Of a DNA stretch of 64,000 bases, positions 4,674 through 36,141 are shown piece by piece. Both the position numbers and the translations under genes were made by a program. The first letter of the stretch is position 1. The number at the start of each line of letters is the position of its first letter. The DNA lies in assembly GCA_041661765.1 (NCBI GenBank), contig JBAZTV010000001.1, forward strand, positions 231,983 through 295,982, written 5' to 3'. The notes under the pieces were generated by a model. It saw nothing but the letters and a program-made list of their open reading frames with translations. It made no database searches and was not told where the DNA came from. This DNA is from Candidatus Shapirobacteria bacterium (GTDB lineage Bacteria > Patescibacteriota > Microgenomatia > UBA12405).

Positions 4674-4745
4674 TCGCCCTTAGCTCAACGGTAGAGCAAT
4701 CCGCTGTTAACGGAAAGGTTTTTGGTTCGAATCCAGAAGGGCGAG
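4674..4745 (+). tRNA. tRNA-Asn (anticodon GTT)
   Basis: Hand-folded cloverleaf: 7-bp acceptor TCGCCCT/AGGGCGA, D arm GCTC-AACGGTA-GAGC, anticodon loop CTGTTAA, T arm TTTGG-TTCGAAT-CCAGA, discriminator G. No CCA is encoded. Confidence 0.75.
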
Positions 4746-4784
4746 CGTAATATCACACATATATTTCACATGTATAATTAGATT

Positions 4785-5285
4785 ATGAATTATGACCCAA
4801 TCAATTTTTCTAAAAATTTAGTCAAAGGAAGAATCGCTGAAACATTATTTGAACAGATGCTTCGTGATGCTGAATGTTTTACAATTTTATCTTTTGGTTA
4901 TGAAAACATTATTCCAGAACTTGCTCATCGCCAAGATGATATAAGAGCACAAGAAACAATGGAAATAATCAGACGAGCTCCTGATTTTGCTGTAATAAAT
5001 AATGAGACACATGATGTTTATTTAATAGAAGTTAAATATTTAATGAAACCTGCTGCTAGTACAATTCTTAAAGATGCAGAAAGAATGTTTCAATCTTGGA
5101 AACCATCTTATCTATTTTTAGCAACACCAGAAGGTTTTTATTTTGATAAGGCCAGTGACATTGTTAAAAATAATGGAATTATAAAACCGTTTTATCATCC
5201 ACAAATTTCAAAAGAATTGCAATTAAAATATACTCAACTACTAAATGAGTTTATTGTTCCAACTGAAACGACACCTAAAAACTAA
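4785..5285 (+). CDS. Hypothetical protein with a PD-(D/E)xK nuclease-like signature
   Basis: 'APDFAVINNETHDVYLIEVKY' gives a PD...ExK arrangement, with an upstream acidic residue in 'RIAETLFEQ'. Confidence 0.4.
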   Translation: MNYDPINFSKNLVKGRIAETLFEQMLRDAECFTILSFGYENIIPELAHRQDDIRAQETMEIIRRAPDFAVINNETHDVYLIEVKYLMKPAASTILKDAERMFQSWKPSYLFLATPEGFYFDKASDIVKNNGIIKPFYHPQISKELQLKYTQLLNEFIVPTETTPKN

Positions 5286-5520
5286 TATTGTGATTAGTCA
5301 AAAACTCAAAACAATTTCAAAAAGTGAAGAAGAAACAAGAGAATATTTTAAGCGAAAATATAATTGGGATATAGCAGAGGCTGATTATCAAGAAGTTTCT
5401 CAGTCCATGTATTACTTAGGTAAAGCGATTTATAGAAGTTTACAATTAGAGTACAAAAGTGACTCAGTCAATATTAAAAATAAGAAAATCATTAGGCAAG
5501 ATAGCAGAAAATTTGTCTGA
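5245..5520 (+). CDS. Hypothetical small protein. The start is uncertain; it overlaps its neighbours.
   Basis: ORF only. A possible GTG start at 5291 lies after the upstream stop. Confidence 0.25.
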   Translation: MSLLFQLKRHLKTNIVISQKLKTISKSEEETREYFKRKYNWDIAEADYQEVSQSMYYLGKAIYRSLQLEYKSDSVNIKNKKIIRQDSRKFV

Positions 5521-5656
5521 CGATGAAGTTTTAAAATTAGATACCAAAATGGAGATTTTTGCCAATCTTATTTTAGATAAAATATTATCCTTAACGCCGG
5601 AAGAGAGAAAAATACTTAATGATAAAATTAGAAAAGGAAATTCAAGTTATATTTAA
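5459..5656 (+). CDS. Hypothetical small protein
   Basis: ORF only. Overlaps the previous ORF by about 60 nt. Confidence 0.2.
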   Translation: MTQSILKIRKSLGKIAENLSDDEVLKLDTKMEIFANLILDKILSLTPEERKILNDKIRKGNSSYI

Positions 5657-5674
5657 AATTAAATTAAAAATAGA

Positions 5675-6487
5675 ATGACATCAAATAACGATGAATTATC
5701 AAAAACTTTAAGATGGAGAGTAAAATCTCTTAAAATTTTTGTTAAAGCATTCAAACGATATATCGAAGTCGCATCACCTTTTGTTACTGAGGATAATACT
5801 GAGCTGAATAAGGAATATAAAGATATACAAAGATTTCTAAGCTATTTTGAAGAGCAAATAGAAAATGGTGATGGTGATTATGATTTTGTTGATTTAATAT
5901 TTTTAGGTAAAAGTTGGGGTAAAATTTATGATCTGATGTGGAAATATAATGGTTGGAAAAAACAACTATTTGATGAAAGAGAAAGAATAATCGTTATTAA
6001 AGCAGCTCTGGAAGGTGACAAAAAACATCTTGAAGAAATAAATGAAATACTAAATAATGATTGTTGGTCATTATTTAACAGATGTCCAATTTTAATTGAT
6101 AGTTTTTATAATGTTATTCATCCGAAGACAGATGATCCAATTATTCAACAAGTCTTTAATATTGAAACTTTAAATGGTGTGCTTGCTGGTACAAATAATG
6201 GAATAATTACTCAAAACAATGAAAGTAAAAAAGTATTAAAAGCTATACAAGAAATAACAAATATTCTTGAAAAAGAATATCTTGAAAATAAAAATACACC
6301 GGAGATACTTTCAAATTTACAAGAGATTCAAGGTGAATTACTTAAACCATTTCCTGATAATTTAAAAATGAAAAAAGCTGCTGATGGACTACAGACGGTT
6401 GCAAATATTACTCAGATTGGTTCATTCGCGGTTGCAATCGCACCCCATTTGCAGACAATACAACAATTTATCAGTAAATTTATTTAA
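5675..6487 (+). CDS. Hypothetical protein (270 aa), island cargo
   Basis: Long ORF with no recognisable motif. Its stop overlaps the stop of the convergent recombinase gene. Confidence 0.45.
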   Translation: MTSNNDELSKTLRWRVKSLKIFVKAFKRYIEVASPFVTEDNTELNKEYKDIQRFLSYFEEQIENGDGDYDFVDLIFLGKSWGKIYDLMWKYNGWKKQLFDERERIIVIKAALEGDKKHLEEINEILNNDCWSLFNRCPILIDSFYNVIHPKTDDPIIQQVFNIETLNGVLAGTNNGIITQNNESKKVLKAIQEITNILEKEYLENKNTPEILSNLQEIQGELLKPFPDNLKMKKAADGLQTVANITQIGSFAVAIAPHLQTIQQFISKFI

Positions 6488-8205
6488 TAAATCCCGCATA
6501 CAGCTATTCTTATTTGTTCCAAAGCAGGGAGCATAGACAATTTTTTATCGCACAAACCATCATATTTATTGGTATCTTCCATTAAATCTTTAGGTTCGAA
6601 CACCACATATTTCTTATCATCAGAGTTTTTAAATTCAACAATGTACTGAAGTGGTTTTGTAAGGTTGATTCCAATGATTTTGTCTTTCAATGTTAGGTTC
6701 GAAGATAAAGAAAGCAATATTTGTTTTCTCGTCTCTAAGTCACCATTTTTAAACCAATATTTGGCATAACAAGCAAAGTTAAAAGTTCGTTCTGATAATT
6801 CAACCCATTGATTGACTCGATCACCAGTTTGATTCATCTTTTCTTCCAATTCTTTTTTCTCTTTCATTAATGTTTCTTTTTGACTCTTAAATTCATCGTC
6901 AGACAATAATTCATTGTCGGTGTTTTGTGGCGATATTTTTAATTTAACTAGGTTATCGATTCTATTAACAACTTTTTTATAGTCTTCTTGGAAAGAATCA
7001 ATTGAGGCATTACGGCTGACTTTTTCTAAATCATAAAGTCTGTTTAATCTTTTGATCGCCCAATTTTTAAATCTCTCTGAAATTTGAATTTTTCCCAAAT
7101 ATTCTTCAACTTGTTCCATTAATTTTTCTTCAGTGACACACCCTTGAGTACAGTGAGGGTTTTTACTTTTAGCACAGTGGTAGTAAGTGTAGTGAAGTAA
7201 TTTTGGATTAACCATATTTTCAATCAAAGTTTCACATTTTGGACAAGCTTTTTTATTCATTGAGGCAAATTTCTGTTTACAAACAGGGCAGATTATTTGA
7301 AACTTTTCTTCAGCAGTAATGGCACCGCCACATTCATTGCATTTAATTAACCCAGATGCAAAAAATTCTCTTGTGTGTGGTCGAGGACTACAACCTTTTC
7401 CGAGCAATATTTGTACTCTATCAAAGTCTTGTCGTGTAATCATCGGTTCATGTTTACCTTTATAAATTTTTCCAGCATATTCAAACTCTCCAAAATAAAA
7501 AGTATCTTCAAAGATTTTATAAATTGTTGATCGTGGCATTGGCTTACCACCATATCGTCCATTTTCAGGAGATCGATATCCCATTTCAGTATTAATATAT
7601 CTTTGAATCTTTGGTGGTGACCATGCACCAGTCAGCATTAACTCCCAAGCCTTTTTTATGATTTGGAATCGAATTGGATCAGACTGAATTTTTTTATTTC
7701 CTTTACTAGAATAGCGATCATTCATATAGCCTGGTTTTGCCCCACTTGGTAACCACCCCATTTCAGCCTTAGTTTTTAATCCACGTTTTACATTTCTTGA
7801 GAGGTCGAGAATAAATTGATTTGCCATACCTCCCTCTACATAAAGCATCAAATTATCGATCGTAGTATATGATTTTTGAGGAGTGACAATAACTACTTCT
7901 TTATCATTTACTGCCCATGTTATTGCACCCATATCGATTGGGTTACGATATAGACGATCTAACTTCCAACAAACAATTCCATTAATTTCTCCAGTTTGTA
8001 CTCTAGCCATCATTTTGGCAAATATTGGTCGCCCTGGTGCTTTTGCGGATTTTGATTCAGTGTAAATGTCTTCTTTCTCAACCTTAATGCCACTTCTTTT
8101 TGCCAATTCTTTAAGTTCATTTAATTGGCTATCAATAGAAAGCACCTGTTTATCTTCAGTGTCAGTCGATTTTCTAGCATAAATGACATATTTCATATTT
8201 TCCAT
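6484..8205 (-). CDS. Large serine recombinase (integrase)
   Basis: N-terminal resolvase catalytic domain 'YVIYARKSTDTEDKQVLSIDSQ'. 573 aa, with a recombinase domain and Cys-rich zinc-ribbon region (CNECGG...CPVC...CPKC). Confidence 0.85.
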   Translation of the reverse strand: MENMKYVIYARKSTDTEDKQVLSIDSQLNELKELAKRSGIKVEKEDIYTESKSAKAPGRPIFAKMMARVQTGEINGIVCWKLDRLYRNPIDMGAITWAVNDKEVVIVTPQKSYTTIDNLMLYVEGGMANQFILDLSRNVKRGLKTKAEMGWLPSGAKPGYMNDRYSSKGNKKIQSDPIRFQIIKKAWELMLTGAWSPPKIQRYINTEMGYRSPENGRYGGKPMPRSTIYKIFEDTFYFGEFEYAGKIYKGKHEPMITRQDFDRVQILLGKGCSPRPHTREFFASGLIKCNECGGAITAEEKFQIICPVCKQKFASMNKKACPKCETLIENMVNPKLLHYTYYHCAKSKNPHCTQGCVTEEKLMEQVEEYLGKIQISERFKNWAIKRLNRLYDLEKVSRNASIDSFQEDYKKVVNRIDNLVKLKISPQNTDNELLSDDEFKSQKETLMKEKKELEEKMNQTGDRVNQWVELSERTFNFACYAKYWFKNGDLETRKQILLSLSSNLTLKDKIIGINLTKPLQYIVEFKNSDDKKYVVFEPKDLMEDTNKYDGLCDKKLSMLPALEQIRIAVCGIY

Positions 8206-8270
8206 AATTGTATATTTATCCTATCTTTAGCCTAAATATATTATATCGGATACCCAAATATAATCCAAGG

Positions 8271-8786
8271 TTAAAAAGGTACCTCCTCATCAGAAAAACT
8301 ACTATTATCATTAGTTTTGTTAGATTCCTTTAAATTACTATTAATATCAACATTAGAAGAACTATTAGAAAAACTATTTTGGGTTTGTTTACTTGCACCA
8401 TTAGAATTATTGTTTTCGCCATTAAAATTCCATCTATCTACTTCAGAAAAATCAATCCAATCATCGTCAGCATTTTTAACAGAAACAACTTTTATTTCGT
8501 AAAAACTTTCTTCTTTTTTTAAAATTAACTCTTTTTTTAATAATTTATTCATTACTCTTGAAACTTTCGTTATTGACCATCGGGTCATTCTAGAAAGGTC
8601 AGCAAGAGTAACCTCTACATGTTTATAATTTTTATGTCTTTTATCCCAGTCATAAAGTGCATTTAATAAATCCCATAATCTATATTCAGAATCATCTAAC
8701 TTAAATTTAAGTGCAGTCAAATGTCTGTCTCTCCTCAAAAATTGGAACCCCTTTTCTAGTCGATAAGCCTTACTACTTGTCTTCAT
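8271..8786 (-). CDS. Hypothetical protein. The N-terminal ~100 aa may be a winged-helix DNA-binding domain; the C-terminal tail is Asn/Ser-rich low complexity.
   Basis: ORF only. Composition and predicted helices. Confidence 0.4.
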   Translation of the reverse strand: MKTSSKAYRLEKGFQFLRRDRHLTALKFKLDDSEYRLWDLLNALYDWDKRHKNYKHVEVTLADLSRMTRWSITKVSRVMNKLLKKELILKKEESFYEIKVVSVKNADDDWIDFSEVDRWNFNGENNNSNGASKQTQNSFSNSSSNVDINSNLKESNKTNDNSSFSDEEVPF

Positions 8787-9007
8787 TTTCCTTTTTTGGC
8801 ATTGCTTTATAAATCACTTGAAAAAGATTTAAAAGCCTTTGCCCTTGTTCTTCTGCCACATCATCGCCAATTTCCTCGCCAAACTCAGCAAGCCATATTT
8901 CTTTGAATTCGTTGAGGTCTTGTTGGTTTAACATTTCGACAGTTAATTAATAACTGTCATATTATGAATCTGTGGAAAGTTACGAGATATGAACAAGTGA
9001 ACAGGTG

Positions 9008-9736
9008 TTACATGTCCACAGCGAGAAGTTTTTTATATCTTTGAATTGATCGTTTTACCCCTTCAACACCAGACACACTCGTTAAAGGATTATTTAATTT
9101 CATCTGTTGTTGTTTTTCTTTTTCTGATAATTCTGATAATGCAATTTGGGCATAACTTTCGCCTTTTACATTTCGCCAATACCAATGTCGATCACGTTTA
9201 ATATTAGTTATATTTTTTGGGTCTTTTAACTCCTTATATATCGGACTCCACAACTCATCTGGCACCAACTCAAACATTTTCTTTTTATAAGTTTCAAACT
9301 TTTTATCAAACAATTCGTTTAATTCTTTTTTGGTCGTAAACTGATCTAAAATAATTGTCATAGTAGTACCAAGAGGATATTTAAACCATTTTTGACTATC
9401 ATAAATCTTGAATTTCACTGGTTTATAATCTTTTAAAGTCACTTTATTTGATAACGTTGCGGCTAACATTACGGATTCAAAACTGGCTGGTCTAGAATAC
9501 TTTGTAGCCAAAAAAGTAATATCGTCTCGTAGTTGTTCAAATTCCTCAGTTGTCGTTTGTTGTAGCCGTTCTGGTGAAGCCAAATAACTATTAAATATAG
9601 TCCTAAGTTCCATTATTTCTTTCAAACAATCAAGTCTGTCTAATACTGTCACTAATTGAAAATATCGATGATTTTCAAATCGATCATCGACTTCTATTGG
9701 GTCAAGATTCATTGATATTAATTTTTCTGTCTTCAC
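9008..9736 (-). CDS. Hypothetical protein (242 aa)
   Basis: ORF with no recognisable motif. Confidence 0.4.
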   Translation of the reverse strand: MKTEKLISMNLDPIEVDDRFENHRYFQLVTVLDRLDCLKEIMELRTIFNSYLASPERLQQTTTEEFEQLRDDITFLATKYSRPASFESVMLAATLSNKVTLKDYKPVKFKIYDSQKWFKYPLGTTMTIILDQFTTKKELNELFDKKFETYKKKMFELVPDELWSPIYKELKDPKNITNIKRDRHWYWRNVKGESYAQIALSELSEKEKQQQMKLNNPLTSVSGVEGVKRSIQRYKKLLAVDM

Positions 9737-9810: not shown

Positions 9811-11463
9811 ATGAGCAATAAGATTTATATAAAGCAAGTTAATATTGAAAACTTTAAATGTTTTAAAGGTAATTTTAATTTACCTTTAAATGAAGGCCTT
9901 AATATTATTGTCGGCGACAATGAGGCAGGTAAATCTACAATTTTAGAAGCAATTCATTTGGCATTAACAGGATTATTAAATGGAAGATATTTAAAAAACG
10001 AATTAACACAGTATCTGTTTAACCACGAAGTAGTCGATGAATATATTAAAAAAGCAAATACGGGAGATAACCCACCACTGCCATATATTTTAATCGAAGT
10101 TATTATTGCAGGCGAGGATTTATCAAAATTTGAAGGAGATAACAATTTTGAAGGGAAAAAAGAGTGTGGTATTTCTTTCAAGATTGGATTTGATGATAAA
10201 TATAAACCAGAGTATGAAGAATTTATTAAAAATGGAGACATTAAAACTATTCCTATTGAATATTATGATATTTTTTGGACTTCCTGTGCTCGTGATAATA
10301 TCACCGCAAGGAGCATACCAATTAAGTCTGCACTAATAGATTCTTCAAGTAATCATTATGAAAACGGCTCTGATATTTATATTTCAAGAATTATTAAAGA
10401 TAATTTAGAAGAAAAAGATAAAGTAAATATATCTCAAGCATACAGAAGAATGGTGGATAGCTTTATGTGTGATAATTCCGTAAAAGAAATTAGTAAAAAA
10501 ATTAAAACTGATGCAAATATTTCCACAAAAAGAGTTGAATTGTCGGTTGGTTTGTCGTCAAAAAACAGTTGGGAAAGTAGTTTAATGACTTACTTTGATG
10601 ACATACCATTTCACTACATTGGGAAAGGGGAGCAATGTATCGTAAAGACAAAATTAGCTCTAAGTCATAAAAAATCACAAGAAGCAAATATTCTTCTTCT
10701 TGAAGAACCAGAAAATCATCTTTCACATACAAAACTTAATCAATTAATTAATGAAATCAAGGAAAGTAATAGTGAAAAACAAATAATAGTTTCCACTCAT
10801 AGTAGTTTTGTGGCAAATAAATTAGGATTAGGAAATTTAATTCTATTAAATAATAAAAAAACAGTAAGATTAAATAATTTAAATGATGATACTAAAATTT
10901 TTTTTGAAAAACTCTCAGGATATGACACACTTCGTCTTATACTTTGTCAAAAGGCTATTTTAGTGGAAGGAGATTCTGATGAATTAATAATTCAAAAAGC
11001 ATTTTTAATTCAAAATGGTATGTTACCAATTGAATGCAACAAAGGAATAGATGTTATCTCTGTCGGAACAACATTTTTGAGATTTTTAGAAATTGCAAAA
11101 GAAATTGATAAATCAGTAGTAGTGGTGACAGATAATGATGGAAAACCAGATGGTGTAAAAAATAAATATACAGATTATCTCGGTGAAAATGCCAAAGATT
11201 CTATCAAAATTTGTTTCGATGAGGATGTTGATACTGGAGTATTGGAGATTGATGGAAAAGCTTTTAATTACAACACCCTTGAACCAAAAATGTTAAAAGC
11301 TAACAGCTTAGATTCTCTTAATAAAATTTTTGGAACAAATTACCAAAATACTGATGATTTACACAAATATATGCATGCGAAAAAAACTGAATGTGCTCTG
11401 AAAATATTTGAAACCAAAGAAATTGTAAAATTTCCAAAATATATTCAAGACGCAATAGCATAG
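9811..11463 (+). CDS. gajA: OLD-family ATP-dependent nuclease: N-terminal ABC-type ATPase plus C-terminal Toprim. GajA-like.
   Basis: Walker A 'GDNEAGKST' with the leading 'IENFKCF' strand typical of AAA_21/OLD proteins. C-terminal Toprim 'ILVEGDSDELIIQKAF' and 'VVVTDNDGKPD'. Confidence 0.7.
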   Translation: MSNKIYIKQVNIENFKCFKGNFNLPLNEGLNIIVGDNEAGKSTILEAIHLALTGLLNGRYLKNELTQYLFNHEVVDEYIKKANTGDNPPLPYILIEVIIAGEDLSKFEGDNNFEGKKECGISFKIGFDDKYKPEYEEFIKNGDIKTIPIEYYDIFWTSCARDNITARSIPIKSALIDSSSNHYENGSDIYISRIIKDNLEEKDKVNISQAYRRMVDSFMCDNSVKEISKKIKTDANISTKRVELSVGLSSKNSWESSLMTYFDDIPFHYIGKGEQCIVKTKLALSHKKSQEANILLLEEPENHLSHTKLNQLINEIKESNSEKQIIVSTHSSFVANKLGLGNLILLNNKKTVRLNNLNDDTKIFFEKLSGYDTLRLILCQKAILVEGDSDELIIQKAFLIQNGMLPIECNKGIDVISVGTTFLRFLEIAKEIDKSVVVVTDNDGKPDGVKNKYTDYLGENAKDSIKICFDEDVDTGVLEIDGKAFNYNTLEPKMLKANSLDSLNKIFGTNYQNTDDLHKYMHAKKTECALKIFETKEIVKFPKYIQDAIA

Positions 11464-11465
11464 AT

Positions 11466-12656
11466 ATGCACGGTAATAATAAATTAATTATTGCTGTTGC
11501 CGGCTCTGGTAAAACAACCTTTCTTATAAATGAAGCACTTAAGAAGAAAGATGGCCACATACTTATAACTACTTATACAATTGCAAATTGTGAAGAAATA
11601 AGAAAAAAAATTATTAAAAAAAGTGGTTATATTCCTCAAAATATAGAAATACAAACTTGGTTTTCACTTCTAATTCAACATGGAGTAAAGCCATTCCAGT
11701 CACATTTTGATAAAGGATTATCAGACTTTAAAATAAAAGGACTACTTTTAACTAATACAAAATCTGCAGTTAAATATACGAACTCAAAAGGGATACCAGT
11801 CTGTTATGAAGAATCTGAAATAAAAAAACATTTTTTTACACCAAACAATAGAATCTATTCTGATAAACTCGCAAAGTTTGTTGTCGGTGGTGGAGATAGA
11901 TTTAGAAAAACAAAAGAAAGAAAATTTTTTGTCGATCTTATGATTAATCGGCTATCAAAAATTTATTCAGATATTTATATTGATGAAGTTCAAGATCTGG
12001 CTGGGTATGATTTGATTTTTTTACAATACCTTTTTAAAAGTTCAATCAATGTTTTGATGGTTTGTGACCCAAGGCAAGTAACATATTTAACTCATCATGA
12101 AACAAAGTTTAAACAATATAAAGATGGAAAAATTAAAGAATTTATCAAAACTGATAACAAAAAATATTTTAAGGATGAAGATATTGACGAAACTTCCCTA
12201 AGGGTTTCACATAGAAATAATAATGCTATCTGTAAATTGTCTTCAAAATTATTTCCAGAATACGTTTATTCTGAACCTTGTACTTGTTTTGAATGTAGAA
12301 AATCTGACAGTGAAGATCACATTGGAGTTTTTATAGTCAAAAAATGTGATGTCAAAAAATATCTTTCCACTTATAATCCAATGCAGTTAAGAGACAAAAA
12401 AACAGTATTGGTTAATGAAAAATTTGATGTTGCAAATTTTGGCGAATCCAAAGGATTAACTTTTAATAGAGTTCTTATTTATCCAACAAAAGAATTTATC
12501 AAATGGTTAAAAGACGATAAGTATAAGTTAGCCCCAACAAGTAGATCGAAATTCTACGTCGCCATAACAAGAGCAATTTACAGTGTCGGAATTATTTGTG
12601 ATGAAAAAATAGAGATTGCAGATGTGAATGAATTTATAAATACATTACCAAATTAA
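11466..12656 (+). CDS. gajB: UvrD-like helicase, GajB-like
   Basis: Motif I 'AVAGSGKTT', motif II 'IDEVQDLAG', C-terminal 'FYVAITRA' (motif VI-like). It sits 2 nt after the OLD-family gene. Confidence 0.7.
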   Translation: MHGNNKLIIAVAGSGKTTFLINEALKKKDGHILITTYTIANCEEIRKKIIKKSGYIPQNIEIQTWFSLLIQHGVKPFQSHFDKGLSDFKIKGLLLTNTKSAVKYTNSKGIPVCYEESEIKKHFFTPNNRIYSDKLAKFVVGGGDRFRKTKERKFFVDLMINRLSKIYSDIYIDEVQDLAGYDLIFLQYLFKSSINVLMVCDPRQVTYLTHHETKFKQYKDGKIKEFIKTDNKKYFKDEDIDETSLRVSHRNNNAICKLSSKLFPEYVYSEPCTCFECRKSDSEDHIGVFIVKKCDVKKYLSTYNPMQLRDKKTVLVNEKFDVANFGESKGLTFNRVLIYPTKEFIKWLKDDKYKLAPTSRSKFYVAITRAIYSVGIICDEKIEIADVNEFINTLPN

Positions 12657-12665
12657 TAGTTCTTT

Positions 12666-12890
12666 CTATAATCTAAATAACTCCGAAACATCAACTTTCA
12701 ATTTTTTAGCAATCTTTAAGAGTACTTCCATTGATGGATTTATTCTTCCTTGTTCAATGTGGCCGATATGAGTTCTACTTAAACCCAAAGCTTCAGCAAA
12801 TTCTTCCTGACTCTTGTAGCCAATTTGTTTTCTTAGTTTTTGAATAGTCTTTCCCAACCTTTTAGTAACCTTTCTCTTTGTTATAACCAT
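12666..12890 (-). CDS. XRE-family helix-turn-helix transcriptional regulator
   Basis: 74 aa. 'LRKQIGYKSQEEFAEALGLSRTHIGHIEQGRINPS' is a Cro/C1-type HTH. Confidence 0.75.
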   Translation of the reverse strand: MVITKRKVTKRLGKTIQKLRKQIGYKSQEEFAEALGLSRTHIGHIEQGRINPSMEVLLKIAKKLKVDVSELFRL

Positions 12891-13007
12891 GCTTGGATTA
12901 TGTCTAGCTATGAGGAGAAACTCTACTAGCTTAAAGCGAGCAATTAGGTATAAATAATGTATAATCTCGTTTAGAAGTCCTATTACAAATTTTTTAATAT
13001 AAACAAT

Positions 13008-13286
13008 ATGACCAACCCTTATTGGGACAAGATTAAAAAAACTGTGTCAGAGATTGATAATCTTGTTAATAACAATTCAAAGAAAGACATCCAATTTAAG
13101 AAACCAACAAAAATATTTTTTGGCAAAAAATGTCTCAAGTGTAATAGTCGTAATGTCAAAACTATAAAAGCTGGATTTATGAAACATCTAATGCAACAAA
13201 ATGTTGCCATTTGGGTACCAGGAGCCAAAATATCAAAACCTTTAAATGTTTGCCGTGATTGTGGTTTCTCTTGGGAAGACCGTTAA
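13008..13286 (+). CDS. Small zinc-ribbon protein (CxxC...CxxC)
   Basis: 'CLKCNSRN' and 'CRDCGF' Cys pairs. Confidence 0.4.
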   Translation: MTNPYWDKIKKTVSEIDNLVNNNSKKDIQFKKPTKIFFGKKCLKCNSRNVKTIKAGFMKHLMQQNVAIWVPGAKISKPLNVCRDCGFSWEDR

Positions 13287-13287
13287 T

Positions 13288-13305
13288 TGTCTCGTAGCCG
13301 AGACA
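13288..13305 (+). terminator. Hairpin TGTCTCG-TAGC-CGAGACA immediately after the stop of the zinc-ribbon gene
   Basis: Perfect 7-bp stem with a 4-nt loop. There is no strong T tract, so terminator function is uncertain. Confidence 0.3.
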
Positions 13306-13535
13306 GATGAAATAGTAAGTACCAATTTATATACTATTGTATAGGACTATATAATATATAATGGAAACATAGGTAATAACTCTCAGGAAGTCGTTTGAAA
13401 AATAAAGCAGACTCAATTATAGATTTAACTATTAAAACTTATTCTACGAGGCTACATGAAGCCACAATAGTGTTCTTAATTAAATACCAAGAATAGTTTT
13501 GTTGATTATCATTAGTTTCACTTGGAAAGATAAAC

Positions 13536-13559
13536 ATTTGTCACGCAGGCGTGACAAAT
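13536..13559. promoter_or_regulatory. Perfect 11-bp inverted repeat ATTTGTCACGC-AG-GCGTGACAAAT, 25 nt upstream of the methyltransferase start
   Basis: Read directly from the sequence. Its position suggests an operator or transcript-end structure for the restriction-modification module. Confidence 0.4.
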
Positions 13560-13583
13560 TAAAAACATGTTCAACTTGGGTCC

Positions 13584-14924
13584 TTGTTTCCCAAACAAAA
13601 CACAAATATAATTAAGAAGATGAATAGTAAATTTACTTTTATAGATCTGTTTGCTGGTATCGGTGGATTTAGAATCGCATTAGAAAGATGTGGTGGTAAA
13701 TGTTTAGGTTTTTCTGAAATAGAACCCAAAGCTATTGAGACCTATAAAGAAAATTTCATAAAAAAGAATGACAATGAGTGGGAACTTGGCGATATACAAA
13801 AAATAAATAAATTACCTACACCAGTTGATGTAATTGTCGGTGGTGTGCCGTGTCAGTCTTGGTCTGTCGCTGGGAAAATGAGAGGATTTGAAGACCCACG
13901 CGGTAAATTATGGCACGATGCTATAAGATTAGTGAAATTAAACAGACCAAAAGTTTTTGTATTTGAAAATGTCAAAGGATTAGCCGATCCAAGAAATAAA
14001 GAGAATTTAAATCTTATAGTTAATAGTTTTAAAGAATTAGGTTATACCATACCAACTCCTCAACTTTTAAATTCATATGATTTTGGTCTTCCACAAAATA
14101 GAGAAAGAATATTTATTGTTGGTTTTAACAATGATGTCATTTCTGATTTAAATTTTTCTTATCCCAAAAAACGTAATATTGAATTTAGATTATCAGATTT
14201 TCTAGATGGTCTTGAACAAAAAACCGTTATAAAGAAAAAAATAAATCCAAAAGAATTATTTGACGGTAAAATACCTCTATCAAGAAATAAATTTCAAGTA
14301 AATGATGAATTAAATGATTTTTTTGTCTTTTGTGACGCTAGGAATGGTCACAGTACTATTCACTCTTGGGACCTTATTCCAACTAGTAATAGAGAAAAAG
14401 AAATTTGTTATGCCATAATGAGAAATCGTAGAAAAAAAGTTTATGGGGAAAAAGATGGTAACCCATTAGGATTTAAGGATATTGATGACCTAGTTTCTAA
14501 CCTTAAAAAAGAAGAATTAGAAGGGTTAGTTCTTAAAAGAATACTTAGAAAAGTAGAAGGTGGAAAATTTGACTTGGTAAACTCAAAAAATTCTTCTGGT
14601 ATTAATGGAATCTATCGGGTATTTTTACCAAATTCAAAAATATTTTCTACTATCACTGCCACTGGAACTCGTGATCATGTCGCTACTGTCACAATAAGTG
14701 GTCGCACCCCAGAAGAATATCGACGAAATTTCATTAAAAAAGTGTATGAAAAAGGGAATTTTAGACAAATTACTCCAAGAGAGGCCGGATTATTACAGGG
14801 GTTTGGACATAATTTTAAACTTAACAGACAAGATAGAATCTCCCTTAAACAATTTGGTAATGCTGTTTCAGTAAATGTTGTCTATGCTCTAATGGAATCT
14901 ATAATTAAGACTGGTATTTTTTGA
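13584..14924 (+). CDS. DNA (cytosine-5)-methyltransferase
   Basis: Motif I 'FIDLFAGIGGF', motif IV 'GGVPCQSWS', motif VI 'ENVKGL'. Confidence 0.9.
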   Translation: MFPKQNTNIIKKMNSKFTFIDLFAGIGGFRIALERCGGKCLGFSEIEPKAIETYKENFIKKNDNEWELGDIQKINKLPTPVDVIVGGVPCQSWSVAGKMRGFEDPRGKLWHDAIRLVKLNRPKVFVFENVKGLADPRNKENLNLIVNSFKELGYTIPTPQLLNSYDFGLPQNRERIFIVGFNNDVISDLNFSYPKKRNIEFRLSDFLDGLEQKTVIKKKINPKELFDGKIPLSRNKFQVNDELNDFFVFCDARNGHSTIHSWDLIPTSNREKEICYAIMRNRRKKVYGEKDGNPLGFKDIDDLVSNLKKEELEGLVLKRILRKVEGGKFDLVNSKNSSGINGIYRVFLPNSKIFSTITATGTRDHVATVTISGRTPEEYRRNFIKKVYEKGNFRQITPREAGLLQGFGHNFKLNRQDRISLKQFGNAVSVNVVYALMESIIKTGIF

Positions 14925-14946
14925 ATAAATAAGCCATAATCAGGAT

Positions 14947-15669
14947 GTGATAAGCGAAAAACAAAAAAGTGAATTTTTATTGCGTTTAGGTAAATGGGTA
15001 ACCGATGATTTTGCCAAAAAATATGAGAATAATATTAGAAAATGTTCAAAATTATCAGAGTTTAAGGTTAATCCGCTACTTTTACCATTTCTTTCTCTCA
15101 CTTTTACTGGGAATGTTGATCCAGAAAGTTTAGCCAAAGTCCTAGTTTACCCACGAGTACTCAGCACTTCAATTACCACTACATTTGGAACAGGATTACA
15201 GAGATTTATAACTGATGCTTGGAATGAAATCTGTGGAGGATCTGGTTTATCTGGAATCGATATAGAATTTACAGATCAGATTGAAGGTGGTAAAAAATAT
15301 GCTCAAATTAAACTTGGGCCAAATACCATTAATAAAGATGATGTGAAGACTATTACTGATCATTTTAAGGGTGCACTTAATTTAAGTAGGACAAATAATC
15401 TTAAAATTAAACACGAAGACTTAGTTGTTGGTGTTGTTTATGGTAAAGAATCGGAGAAGAACGCCAACCTTAAAAAATTAGATACAGAATACACAGTCTT
15501 AATAGGTCAAGATTTTTGGTATCACTTAACTGGTGACAAGGATTTTTATAATGAAATGAAGAAAACAATATTTACCTCGTCAGAAAAAATATGTCTAAAA
15601 GATGATATTGAAAAAGCTATTAAAGAACTATCAAAATCTATTAACAAAGACAGAATTTTATCAGCTTAA
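14947..15669 (+). CDS. Candidate cognate restriction endonuclease (uncharacterised 240-aa protein directly downstream of the methyltransferase)
   Basis: Position only. A possible D...ExK arrangement in 'GIDIEF...YAQIKLG'. The start codon is uncertain (GTG). Confidence 0.35.
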   Translation: MISEKQKSEFLLRLGKWVTDDFAKKYENNIRKCSKLSEFKVNPLLLPFLSLTFTGNVDPESLAKVLVYPRVLSTSITTTFGTGLQRFITDAWNEICGGSGLSGIDIEFTDQIEGGKKYAQIKLGPNTINKDDVKTITDHFKGALNLSRTNNLKIKHEDLVVGVVYGKESEKNANLKKLDTEYTVLIGQDFWYHLTGDKDFYNEMKKTIFTSSEKICLKDDIEKAIKELSKSINKDRILSA

Positions 15670-34130: not shown

Positions 34131-34383
34131 ATCAGTTCTTTTAAAATGGCGTTATAAACAAGAGCGTGTGGTCCGCCCACTGACGGAATACGAGGAAAAG
34201 GGTCAATCGATTTATCTGCGGAAACCCTTAGGTTGTGATTGTCAGCCTTAATATTTTCTTTAAACCTTTGAAGTAATTCAAAAATTAAAGGGAAAATAGA
34301 ACAATTGCCATTTCCACAAAAGAATACATTTGCCGGATTTTTAGGTATTTTTATTTGTTTAAAAATCTTGCATATATAAAAAC

Positions 34384-36141
34384 ATGTGTGGAATATTTGG
34401 CTATAAAGGCAGCTCTGACGCCGCCAATATTGTTTTATCTGGTTTAAAAAAACTTGATTATAGAGGTTACGATTCTTGGGGTATTGCTCTTAATTTTGGT
34501 CATAAAATTTTTCTAAAAAAAGACGTTGGTAAAATCAGTGATATTAAAAAAATTGATTTACCTTTTGGAAATATTTCTGTTGGTCACACTCGCTGGGCAA
34601 CCACCGGTTCAGTTTCTCAAATTAATGCCCATCCTCATTTTTCCACCGACAAATCTTTTGCTCTAGTCCAAAACGGCATTGTTGAAAATTTTGAGGAATT
34701 GAAATCCGATTTAAAAAAGAGAGGCTACCAATTTAAATCCGAAACCGACACTGAAGTTATTGTTCGTTTGATCGAAAGTCAAAAAAATAAAAATTTAATT
34801 AATGCCATCAGATCGGCTTTTTTACAGTTAAAAGGCCGCAATACTATTGCCGTTCTCGATTCCAAAAATAATCAAATTATTGCCCTCAGAAACGGCTCGC
34901 CTTTAATTATTGGCACCAATCAAAATGATTTTTATTTATCTTCCGACACTTTATCTCTCTCTGGTTTTGCCACTAAATACATCGATTTAGATAATTTTGA
35001 CATGGTTGTTATCAATAATAAAATTAATTTTTTTAATTCAAGAACCGGTCATAAAATTAATAAAAAATTAAAGGATTTAGAAATTTCTAATTTTTCTTCC
35101 GAGTTGGGTAGCTACGATCATTACATGATTAAAGAAATTATGGAAAGCCCAAAAGTTATTCAAAATATTGTTAATTCCGATCCAAAAAATGTTTTTAGAT
35201 TAGCCCAAGCCATTAAAAAATCCAAAACTGTTTATTTAATTGGTTCCGGCACTGCCGGTAATGCTGCCGCTCAAACTGCTTATTATCTTAAAAAGTATGC
35301 CCAAGTTTCGGCAATTAGTCTTGTTGGTTCTGATGCAAAAGATTATTACCAATTATTTTCTTCAAAAGACTTAATCATTGCTCCATCTCAAAGCGGGGAG
35401 ACCAGTGATGTTTTAGAAGTTTTGGAATTTGCCAAAACTAAAGGAGTAAAAATTGCTTCGTTGGTTAATATGCCCGGTTCTTCCATGTCCCGTCTTTCCA
35501 ATTTTAAATTTAGTTCCAATTCAGGTCCCGAAATTTGCGTCATGTCGACTAAAGTTTTTGTCGCCCAAATTGTTTGGGGCTATTTAATCGCCAAAACTGT
35601 CGCCGGCGATTATTACCAGGCCATCAAAGAGCTCCAAAAATTATCCGAATCAGTCCAAAAATATTTAACCGATCCCAAAAATATTAATCAAATTAAAAAA
35701 ACAGCCGACCTTCTTTTAAATACTCACGACATTTTTTTATTAGGCAAAGGTCAAAATTTTCAAATAGCCAAAGAGGGAATGATTAAATTAATTGAAGGCA
35801 CTTATAAACATGCCCACGCTATTCCCGCTGGCGATTTAAAACATTATGCAATCACCTTAATTGAAAAAAATGTTTTTGTTTTAGTTTTGCTTTCACCAGA
35901 TGATTTATCAGATTTAAACAGCGCCATTAACGAAATTCGTAGTCGGGGTGGCACCATCATTGGTCTTTTTAATCAAAAGCAAAATAATTTTGATTATTGT
36001 TTACAAACTCCAAAATTAGCCGAAACTGGCGCTATTTTTAATATTATTCCGCTTCAGTTATTAGCCTATTATCTAGCTGTTAAATTGGGGAATAATGTCG
36101 ACAAGCCCCGTAATATTGCCAAATCGGTCACCGTAAATTAA
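34384..36141 (+). CDS. glmS: Glutamine--fructose-6-phosphate aminotransferase
   Basis: 'MCGIFGY' N-terminal nucleophile Cys, two SIS domains, C-terminal 'KSVTVN'. Confidence 0.9.
   Translation: MCGIFGYKGSSDAANIVLSGLKKLDYRGYDSWGIALNFGHKIFLKKDVGKISDIKKIDLPFGNISVGHTRWATTGSVSQINAHPHFSTDKSFALVQNGIVENFEELKSDLKKRGYQFKSETDTEVIVRLIESQKNKNLINAIRSAFLQLKGRNTIAVLDSKNNQIIALRNGSPLIIGTNQNDFYLSSDTLSLSGFATKYIDLDNFDMVVINNKINFFNSRTGHKINKKLKDLEISNFSSELGSYDHYMIKEIMESPKVIQNIVNSDPKNVFRLAQAIKKSKTVYLIGSGTAGNAAAQTAYYLKKYAQVSAISLVGSDAKDYYQLFSSKDLIIAPSQSGETSDVLEVLEFAKTKGVKIASLVNMPGSSMSRLSNFKFSSNSGPEICVMSTKVFVAQIVWGYLIAKTVAGDYYQAIKELQKLSESVQKYLTDPKNINQIKKTADLLLNTHDIFLLGKGQNFQIAKEGMIKLIEGTYKHAHAIPAGDLKHYAITLIEKNVFVLVLLSPDDLSDLNSAINEIRSRGGTIIGLFNQKQNNFDYCLQTPKLAETGAIFNIIPLQLLAYYLAVKLGNNVDKPRNIAKSVTVN

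Follow-up and report, generated by a model that had tools for sequence, protein, structure and literature searches.

We examined a two-gene locus at 9811 to 12656 in a 64,000-nucleotide (nt) stretch of contig JBAZTV010000001.1 from a metagenome-assembled genome of Candidatus Shapirobacteria, a lineage of the Patescibacteria/Microgenomates group (this whole stretch is hereafter called the window), where gajA and gajB encode the two proteins of a Gabija system. The genes and the parts of their products are as follows.

9811 to 11463, plus strand: gajA, a class 2 OLD-family nuclease (ABC ATPase and Toprim) of 550 aa, from the list of open reading frames (ORFs)
9811 to 10920, plus strand: GajA ABC-type ATPase region with an inserted helical dimerisation region, approximately residues 1-370 (Pfam AAA_15 at 6-335, secondary structure of the model)
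10945 to 11460, plus strand: GajA Toprim nuclease and C-terminal helical region, residues 379-550 (invariant columns, model)
11466 to 12656, plus strand: gajB, a compact UvrD/Rep-like superfamily 1A (SF1A) helicase/NTPase of 396 aa, from the ORF list
11466 to 12131, plus strand: GajB N-terminal half, RecA-like 1A with inserted 1B (about 65-166), residues 1-222 (hhalign, motifs, secondary structure)
12132 to 12653, plus strand: GajB C-terminal half, RecA-like 2A core only, residues 223-396 (model, HMMER)
12231 to 12320, plus strand: Cys/His cluster C256, C272, C274, C277 and H285 in the GajB 2A core (column counts)
12393 to 12428, plus strand: 12-residue loop (residues 310-321) at the expected 2B/Cacc insertion point of GajB (model, motif spacing)

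The two ORFs lie exactly where the initial annotation, made from the sequence, had placed them. They are co-directional, and the junction reads GCA-TAG-AT-ATG, leaving a gap of 2 nt between the gajA stop and the gajB start, which suggests that the two genes are translationally coupled. A scan for promoters and terminators was uninformative, with counts no higher than in shuffled sequence.

The initial annotation had read the pair as a class 2 OLD/Gabija architecture and had proposed a hidden Markov model (HMM) search against GajA and GajB profiles. When this search was run with PADLOC, both genes were matched over nearly the full length of the models, gene 1 by the GajA model PDLC00102 (E 8.7e-221, model positions 2-529 of 532) and gene 2 by the GajB model PDLC00148 (E 4.9e-127, model positions 2-357 of 369), and the proposed architecture was thereby upheld. 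PDLC00148 has just 369 positions, so that the library used for detection already includes the short form of GajB. Pfam gave AAA_15, SMC_N, AAA_21 and OLD-like_TOPRIM on gene 1 and UvrD-helicase and Viral_helicase1 on gene 2, with the AAA_15, OLD-like_TOPRIM and UvrD-helicase matches exceeding their cut-offs. At the level of sequence profiles, the PADLOC and Pfam matches are far beyond chance. The other PADLOC GajB models (458-515 positions) scored window GajB at 93, 53 and 50 bits and the other GajA models scored window GajA at up to 127 bits, while NCBIfam housekeeping helicase models gave window GajB no more than 19 bits; because the other Gabija models outscore the housekeeping helicase and repair-ATPase models, the pair was filed inside the Gabija/class 2 OLD radiation. 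The gene order agrees with this placement, as the gene for a helicase of SF1A fold, similar to UvrD, PcrA and Rep, lies in tandem directly downstream of gajA, and a tandem downstream gene of this type, often overlapping, is among the features that define Gabija/class 2 OLD (Schiltz 2019; Doron 2018). Both proteins were also searched against PDB sequences with phmmer and profile hmmsearch, and no match to any GajA or GajB chain was obtained; the best matches were the OLD protein of Thermus scotoductus (TsOLD, 2e-9) for window GajA and UvrD, AddA, PcrA and Rep for GajB. By these searches, the window proteins appear too diverged from Bacillus cereus GajA and GajB for sequence-profile linkage. Because there is no profile link to the solved Gabija chains, a residue-level alignment to the B. 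cereus VD045 proteins was impossible, and the comparison was made through domain borders from the literature, the distances between motifs and the secondary structure of the models.

The Walker A motif GDNEAGKST of GajA occupies residues 35-43 (nt 9913-9939), and G35, G40 and K41 are kept in an alignment of 36 relatives, in which the signature-like GKGEQ (271-275), the Walker B LLLEEPE (E298/E299) and the H-loop H330 are invariant. The Toprim motifs are ILVEGDSDELII (LVEGDSDE; E386) and VVVTDNDG (D441/D443); together with the Walker A motif, these had been named in the initial annotation, and all of them are present in the ORF translation. In the same 36 relatives E386, D390/E391, G419, D441-x-D443, T489-L-E491 and K525 are invariant, and by residue conservation the two-metal Toprim active site is complete (Glu, second acidic residue, DxD, T-x-E and Lys), with K525 as the putative catalytic Lys by its position and invariance. 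The Toprim residues E379, G409, D432 and D434 of B. cereus GajA (BcGajA; PMC10781630) are the counterparts of window E386, G419, D441 and D443. The window residues likewise map onto the two-metal machinery of the class 2 OLD protein of Burkholderia pseudomallei (BpOLD), which consists of E400, E404, D455, D457, T506, E508 and K562 (PMC6755086), and the spacing from the Glu to the DxD is +55 in both proteins.

The class 2 OLD proteins of B. pseudomallei and Xanthomonas campestris (PDB 6NK8) share with window GajA the two-metal Toprim set, the T-x-E and the Lys, and a UvrD-like gene lies downstream of them as in the window; they differ in length (about 590 aa, versus 550 aa for window GajA) and in the helical domain, which is about 25 aa shorter in window GajA, where E491 to K525 spans 34 residues versus 54 from E508 to K562 in BpOLD. 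Class 2 OLD proteins are about 50 aa longer than those of class 1 through an extended C-terminal helical region, and the total lengths here are 550 aa for window GajA, 528 for TsOLD and 578 for BcGajA. After the DxD, window GajA continues for 107 aa versus 144 aa in BcGajA, and the AlphaFold2 model (predicted local distance difference test score, pLDDT, of 73.9 overall, rising to about 90 from the Toprim to the C-terminus) has helices at 490-549. The class 2 helical region of window GajA is present, but trimmed.

In GajB, motifs I (AGSGKT, 12-17), Ia (35-38), II (DEVQD, 173-177), III (200-204), IV (248-251), V (326-331) and VI (VAITRA, 365-370) were located in the translation, including motifs I, II and VI that the initial annotation had named, and the helicase motif residues, among them the Walker A, DExQD and motif VI, are invariant across the family alignment. 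The same annotation had pointed out that the helicase is only 396 aa, roughly 100 aa shorter than characterised GajB, and that a domain may be missing. Both remarks proved correct, since window GajB is 98 aa shorter than the 494-aa B. cereus GajB (BcGajB), and the loop in the model, the spacing of motifs IV and V and the published domain borders all locate the loss in the 2B/Cacc subdomain. In BcGajB, 1A comprises residues 1-72 and 157-223, 1B residues 73-156, 2A residues 224-305 and 417-494, and 2B residues 306-416 (PMC10822852); in a second description, Ncore is 1-72/156-222, Nacc 73-155, Ccore 223-313/417-494 and Cacc 314-416, and the Cacc, a globule of five helices, is set between two strands of the Ccore, whose own alpha-helices number six (PMC10681800).

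The N-terminal half of GajB is of full size, with about 222 aa in the window protein versus 223 aa in BcGajB. By hhalign with a family profile, its residues 3-208 are collinear with residues 22-255 of Escherichia coli UvrD, and in a longer PADLOC GajB model (502 positions) residues 4-220 match model positions 17-219. The whole shortfall is in the C-terminal half, which has 174 aa versus 271 aa in B. cereus. The distance from motif IV to motif V is 75 aa in window GajB and about 274 aa in UvrD, and HMMER anchors equate positions 150-198 of the family profile with UvrD 206-254 and positions 306-368 with UvrD 551-615, so that about 189 UvrD residues between the anchors are without counterpart in the profile. 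The 2B subdomain of UvrD lies at about residues 378-550; these borders are given for orientation, and the argument rests on the borders in the GajB papers. When the C-terminal half was aligned globally with E. coli UvrD at a low cost of gap extension, its residues were spread through UvrD 2B; this alignment, reliable for motifs V-VI only, was discarded, and the HMMER and hhalign anchors were preferred.

The AlphaFold2 model of GajB was confident (pLDDT 91.8; predicted template modelling score 0.89) and contains exactly six helices in residues 223-396, together with the core strands, in agreement with the published Ccore of BcGajB (PMC10681800). The strands 306-309 and 322-324 are joined by the 12-residue loop 310-321 with no helix between them, and this loop replaces the insert of 103-111 aa of BcGajB. 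Thus, as modelled, the window helicase is a natural 1A-1B-2A core from which the 2B/Cacc accessory subdomain is absent, and it does not have the four-subdomain 1A-1B-2A-2B architecture of BcGajB. The 2B subdomain is a property of the characterised member and is outside the definition of Gabija given by Doron, PADLOC or Schiltz. Compared with E. coli Rep and UvrD, and with an engineered Rep lacking 2B, window GajB is without 2B and also without the first ~21 N-terminal residues of UvrD; Rep and UvrD are housekeeping repair and replication helicases, whereas the gene of window GajB is paired with that of an OLD nuclease on a mobile island.

The 2A core of GajB also holds a Cys/His cluster (C256, C272-x-C274-x2-C277 and H285), which may be a subclade-specific zinc site. 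Among 122 relatives, the column counts were 119 for C256, 101 for C274, 66 each for C272 and C277, and 85 for H285. C272 and C277 co-occur in 66 of the 122, those with a 4-residue insert, while C256 and C274 are nearly universal.

To place the pair among its relatives, one genome per GTDB species was scanned with a pattern, and 447 species were found to carry a helicase relative. These span Bacteroidota, Bacillota, Alpha- and Betaproteobacteria, Campylobacterota, Cloacimonadota, Paceibacterota of the Candidate Phyla Radiation (CPR), and archaea (Methanophagaceae and Methanococcoides). In the 80 related loci that were retrieved, from Bacteroidota, Bacillota, Proteobacteria, Campylobacterota, CPR and archaea, the helicase gene always has a GajA-like ORF directly upstream and in the same orientation (80 of 80). 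A few of these loci are broken by a frameshift or by the end of a contig, and in one (L078, Endobacterium cereale) about 900 bp lie between gajA and gajB. In three of the four loci L011, L044, L059 and L078, gajA is split or frameshifted; these may be decaying copies or assembly errors. An HMM search of 1.84 billion cluster representatives returned 582 clusters (50% identity) of the helicase family at E<=1e-30, and the full-length helicases among the best 150 of these 582 clusters are all about 345-416 aa. This uniform length indicates that the compact size is a fixed trait of the clade and not a truncation. From these comparisons, the short helicase is not a peculiarity of the window locus but the fixed architecture of a large clade already modelled by PADLOC. 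The top relatives across phyla are 65-78% identical in GajA versus 50-66% in GajB, GajA being markedly more conserved across the clade despite constant linkage. The patchy spread across phyla at 65-78% GajA identity is consistent with horizontal movement, which is typical of defence genes. Two Listeria phages were the only phage records with a distant relative.

Plasmids also carry members of the same clade, those of enterobacteria being distant ones. When GajA was searched against PLSDB by tblastn, Bacillus methanolicus pBM69 was found to encode a GajA relative at 64.5% identity together with a 372-aa helicase, and 2,161 mostly conjugative enterobacterial plasmids carried a full-length GajA relative at about 27.5% identity. 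The enterobacterial carriers include Klebsiella (1,182) and Escherichia (675), and the pair is annotated there as 'AAA family ATPase' and 'helicase UvrD'; RefSeq names for the helicase vary among 'helicase UvrD', 'DEAD/DEAH box helicase family protein' and 'hypothetical protein'. In E. coli pVM01 and pEC8-NDM5, a 521-aa ATPase gene overlaps a 340-aa helicase gene and the pair adjoins vapBC (pVM01 accessions WP_001128474 for the 521-aa and WP_000361402 for the 340-aa protein). The best PADLOC models of the enterobacterial pair are those of the window pair, PDLC00102 (6.5e-102) and PDLC00148 (1.9e-47), and the window and enterobacterial helicases align end-to-end by BLASTP with 26% identity (E 1e-32). 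The enterobacterial IncF pair of pVM01 has the same compact architecture, with overlapping genes and a 2B-less helicase, and differs from the window pair in its identity to it (about 26-28%), in that both proteins are shorter still, and in being plasmid-borne beside vapBC. Among 5,426 complete E. coli genomes, 769 (about 14%) carried this version, which was located on plasmids in 780 of its 790 places. On IncF plasmids it always follows vapBC and is often bounded by IS1. Two of these loci, numbered within the extracted segments, are the following.

3274 to 6564 of L085: enterobacterial compact Gabija locus of E. coli pVM01
6274 to 9564 of L087: enterobacterial compact Gabija locus

In a study by Wu et al., an E. 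coli plasmid-associated Gabija (ECOR49), which may or may not be of the compact type, gave protection against phages; the K35/H317 numbering of that study does not fit K37/H314 of pVM01. Wu et al. found plasmid Gabija in the leading region and suggested a role in conflicts between mobile elements.

The genes surrounding gajAB in the window were also examined, and the following features were identified.

4674 to 4746, plus strand: tRNA-Asn(GTT), left edge of an island-like region (ARAGORN, Rfam)
5675 to 6487, plus strand: 270-aa protein whose C-terminal half weakly matches the PADLOC candidate PDC-M14B (E 5.4e-8)
6484 to 8205, minus strand: phage-type large serine recombinase/integrase (Pfam Resolvase and Recombinase; phrog_95 integrase, 3.4e-64)
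8271 to 8786: RepO-like winged helix-turn-helix protein, weak match
12666 to 12890, minus strand: HTH_3 protein, convergent with gajB (Pfam HTH_3, 5.5e-16; PADLOC Control_protein, 3.4e-13)
13584 to 14924, plus strand: C5-cytosine (Dcm-type) methyltransferase, 434 aa from the called start (Pfam DNA_methylase, 2.6e-81; PADLOC MTase_II, 7.2e-136)
14947 to 15669, plus strand: EcoO109I-like endonuclease (Pfam RE_EcoO109I, 1.1e-29)

Between the tRNA-Asn gene and the integrase there are three small ORFs of unknown function, including the one at 5675-6487, for which no Pfam or PHROG match was found, and a 242-aa orphan ORF is divergent from gajA. The region 4674-9736 is probably an integrative element. 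A search for att sites in 3.5-27 kb yielded direct repeats that were only AT-rich, chance-like matches, no second copy of the tRNA-Asn 3' end occurs elsewhere in the window, and GC content did not mark the island borders. On the other side, gajAB adjoins a complete type II restriction-modification (R-M) system (12666-15669) with a C protein-like helix-turn-helix (HTH) gene, a methyltransferase and an endonuclease; the HTH_3 protein is probably its controller (C) protein, and a 92-aa CxxC...CxxC ORF lies at 13008-13286 between the HTH_3 gene and the methyltransferase gene. The gajAB genes thus share a small defence island with the serine integrase and type II R-M genes, and the same island was found in three other metagenome contigs. 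Downstream of the island, a metal/redox cluster at about 17.7-23.8 kb encodes a DUF305 protein, a YgaP-like transmembrane protein, an ArsR-type HTH_5 regulator, a thioredoxin-like protein, an ArsP-type permease, a DsbD_2 protein and an 805-aa P-type cation ATPase. A glmS ribozyme (Rfam RF00234, 71 bits, full length) lies at 34152-34308 on the plus strand, followed by a 585-aa ORF at 34384-36141 that is presumably glmS.

From the profile matches, the conserved pairing, the genomic context and the invariant motif residues, which correspond to residues shown by experiment to be essential in BpOLD and BcGajA, it is probable that the two genes are a functional Gabija (class 2 OLD) system against phages, which belongs to a compact subclade and is located on a small mobile defence island of Candidatus Shapirobacteria (Patescibacteria). 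The system of B. cereus VD045 (GajA 578 aa, GajB 494 aa; PDB 8SM3, 8U7I, 8JQB, 8TK1) has the same operon layout, in which an ABC ATPase-Toprim OLD nuclease is followed by a UvrD-like SF1A protein, and BcGajB shares with window GajB motifs I-VI and subdomains 1A, 1B and 2A. The mechanism was inferred by homology with this system (PMC10781630, PMC10822852, PMC10681800, PMC8136825 and the review PMC10568477). GajA would oligomerise and would be inactive while its ATPase head holds cellular NTP or dNTP, and upon depletion of the nucleotide pools by phage replication its two-metal Toprim site would nick or cleave DNA. GajB, co-translated from the abutting gene, would dock on GajA via its 1A/1B half and would act as a DNA-end-stimulated (d)NTPase/translocase that deepens the nucleotide depletion, the outcome being abortive infection or destruction of phage DNA.

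The absence of 2B was weighed against this mechanism. In B. cereus, GajA is bound by residues 1-223 of GajB but not by its C-terminal region (PMC10822852), and this GajA-binding half is of near-equal length in window GajB. BcGajB is a DNA-stimulated (d)ATP/(d)GTPase (review PMC10568477) that has no helicase activity and from which the functional elements of UvrD 2B (gating helix, GIG motif) are already absent (PMC10681800). Because the GajA-binding half is retained and BcGajB is already without the UvrD 2B elements, the canonical mechanism can accommodate the loss of 2B. This loss is a further argument against duplex unwinding by GajB, and a minimal 1A-1B-2A GajB fits the role of an NTPase or sensor better than that of a duplex-unwinding helicase. 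The retained 1A/1B half would also lend indirect support to a 4:4 GajA-GajB complex in the compact clade.

Several points weigh against the Gabija interpretation and its mechanism. Defence activity, nucleotide sensing, stoichiometry and the NTPase of GajB are all extrapolated from a homologue that profiles do not reach, and our literature search found no experiment on the compact clade. The GajA model is of moderate confidence only (pLDDT 73.9), and with a post-DxD region about 37 aa shorter than that of BcGajA its DNA recognition may differ. In addition, BpOLD, which is also a class 2 protein, is a non-specific nuclease that hydrolyses ATP (review PMC10568477); since it differs in this way from BcGajA, the behaviour of BcGajA is not universal in class 2, and the nucleotide-sensing step is the least secure part of the scheme.

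Other explanations of the pair were considered. A shortfall of 98 aa relative to BcGajB could be taken to mean that the helicase is a truncated or degenerate remnant, and the matches of the AriA (PARIS), PtuA (Septu), NsnB and MAD3 models to the ATPase head could be taken to mean that the pair belongs to PARIS, Septu or class 1 OLD, but these readings are scarcely credible. Decay is refuted by the length of about 345-416 aa in the full-length members of the best 150 clusters, the invariant helicase motifs and the confidently folded model (pLDDT 91.8). The AriA, PtuA, NsnB, MAD3, RecF, SMC and Rad50 models matched the ATPase head alone (E 1e-8 to 1e-19), with AriA and PtuA covering about residues 6-335 or 6-62 at E 1e-16 to 1e-19 versus 1e-221 for GajA; the profile searches thus assigned gene 1 neither to AriA nor to a RecF-like protein and gene 2 not to an unrelated helicase family, the outcomes by which the initial annotation would have fallen. 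PARIS (AriA/AriB) was ruled out, as it combines an ABC ATPase without Toprim and a separate Toprim nuclease gene, whereas in the window ATPase and Toprim form a single protein, the match to the AriA model is confined to residues 6-335 (E 4e-19) and the partner is a helicase. Septu, with an HNH nuclease as partner, was ruled out because PtuA models match only the N-terminal ~60 residues and no HNH gene was found among the neighbours. Retron-associated (class 3) OLD, which has an adjacent reverse transcriptase and noncoding RNA, was ruled out as no reverse transcriptase gene was found among the neighbours and no retron noncoding RNA by Rfam. Class 1 OLD was also ruled out: class 1 old genes, such as that of T. 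scotoductus (PDB 6P74), stand alone, whereas the helicase partner is strictly conserved in the window clade (80 of 80 loci).

It is improbable that the pair is not orthologous to B. cereus-type Gabija and arose when a minimal Rep-like SF1A helicase was independently acquired as partner by a class-1-like OLD nuclease; the distance of the window proteins from the B. cereus chains and the scores of the other Gabija models are the evidence that bears on the two sides. If this were true, the trigger, the stoichiometry and the helicase role could differ from canonical Gabija, with the outcome still being defence. It is very improbable that the pair mainly serves the upkeep or competitiveness of the mobile element that bears it, for example by keeping out rival plasmids or elements or by post-segregational stabilisation, and not host anti-phage immunity. 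The window pair adjoins an integrase, the enterobacterial relatives are overwhelmingly plasmid-borne beside vapBC and ccdAB, and the role in mobile-element conflicts suggested by Wu et al. points the same way; however, defence is still compatible with these observations, as the action of Gabija is directed at foreign DNA in general. Many free-living bacteria and archaea have a relative on the chromosome, and the E. coli Gabija of Wu et al., with the reservation on its type given above, protected against phages.

The system is an uncharacterised instance of known Gabija, whose short helicase is clade-wide and already in the PADLOC models. A wealth of defence systems has been reported from CPR bacteria (PMC12259885), so that a Gabija in an ultra-small Patescibacteria genome is unsurprising. 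It is rather unlikely, but conceivable, that the compact clade is a mechanistically distinct subtype of Gabija, with a 2B-less partner, a shortened GajA helical region and a Cys-cluster metal site in about half of the clade; the SF1A partner would then have lost 2B, described as an autoinhibitory, duplex-binding accessory domain. If so, the trigger, the DNA specificity, the geometry of the complex and the sensitivity to phage inhibitors such as Gad1 could differ, and this could be the medically most relevant Gabija, because its IncF-plasmid form occurs in about 14% of complete E. coli genomes. A search of the literature found no structural or biochemical study of the compact clade and no paper describing a 2B-less GajB clade. 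The 2B-less clade is widespread, including thousands of Klebsiella and E. coli plasmids, and is too far from B. cereus for sequence-based transfer. With an SF1A protein that is naturally reduced to 1A-1B-2A and is the partner of an OLD nuclease, the role of GajB as NTPase/sensor versus helicase can be cleanly tested, and the compact clade would also show whether the findings on inhibition by Gad1 and on sequence-specific nicking hold outside B. cereus.

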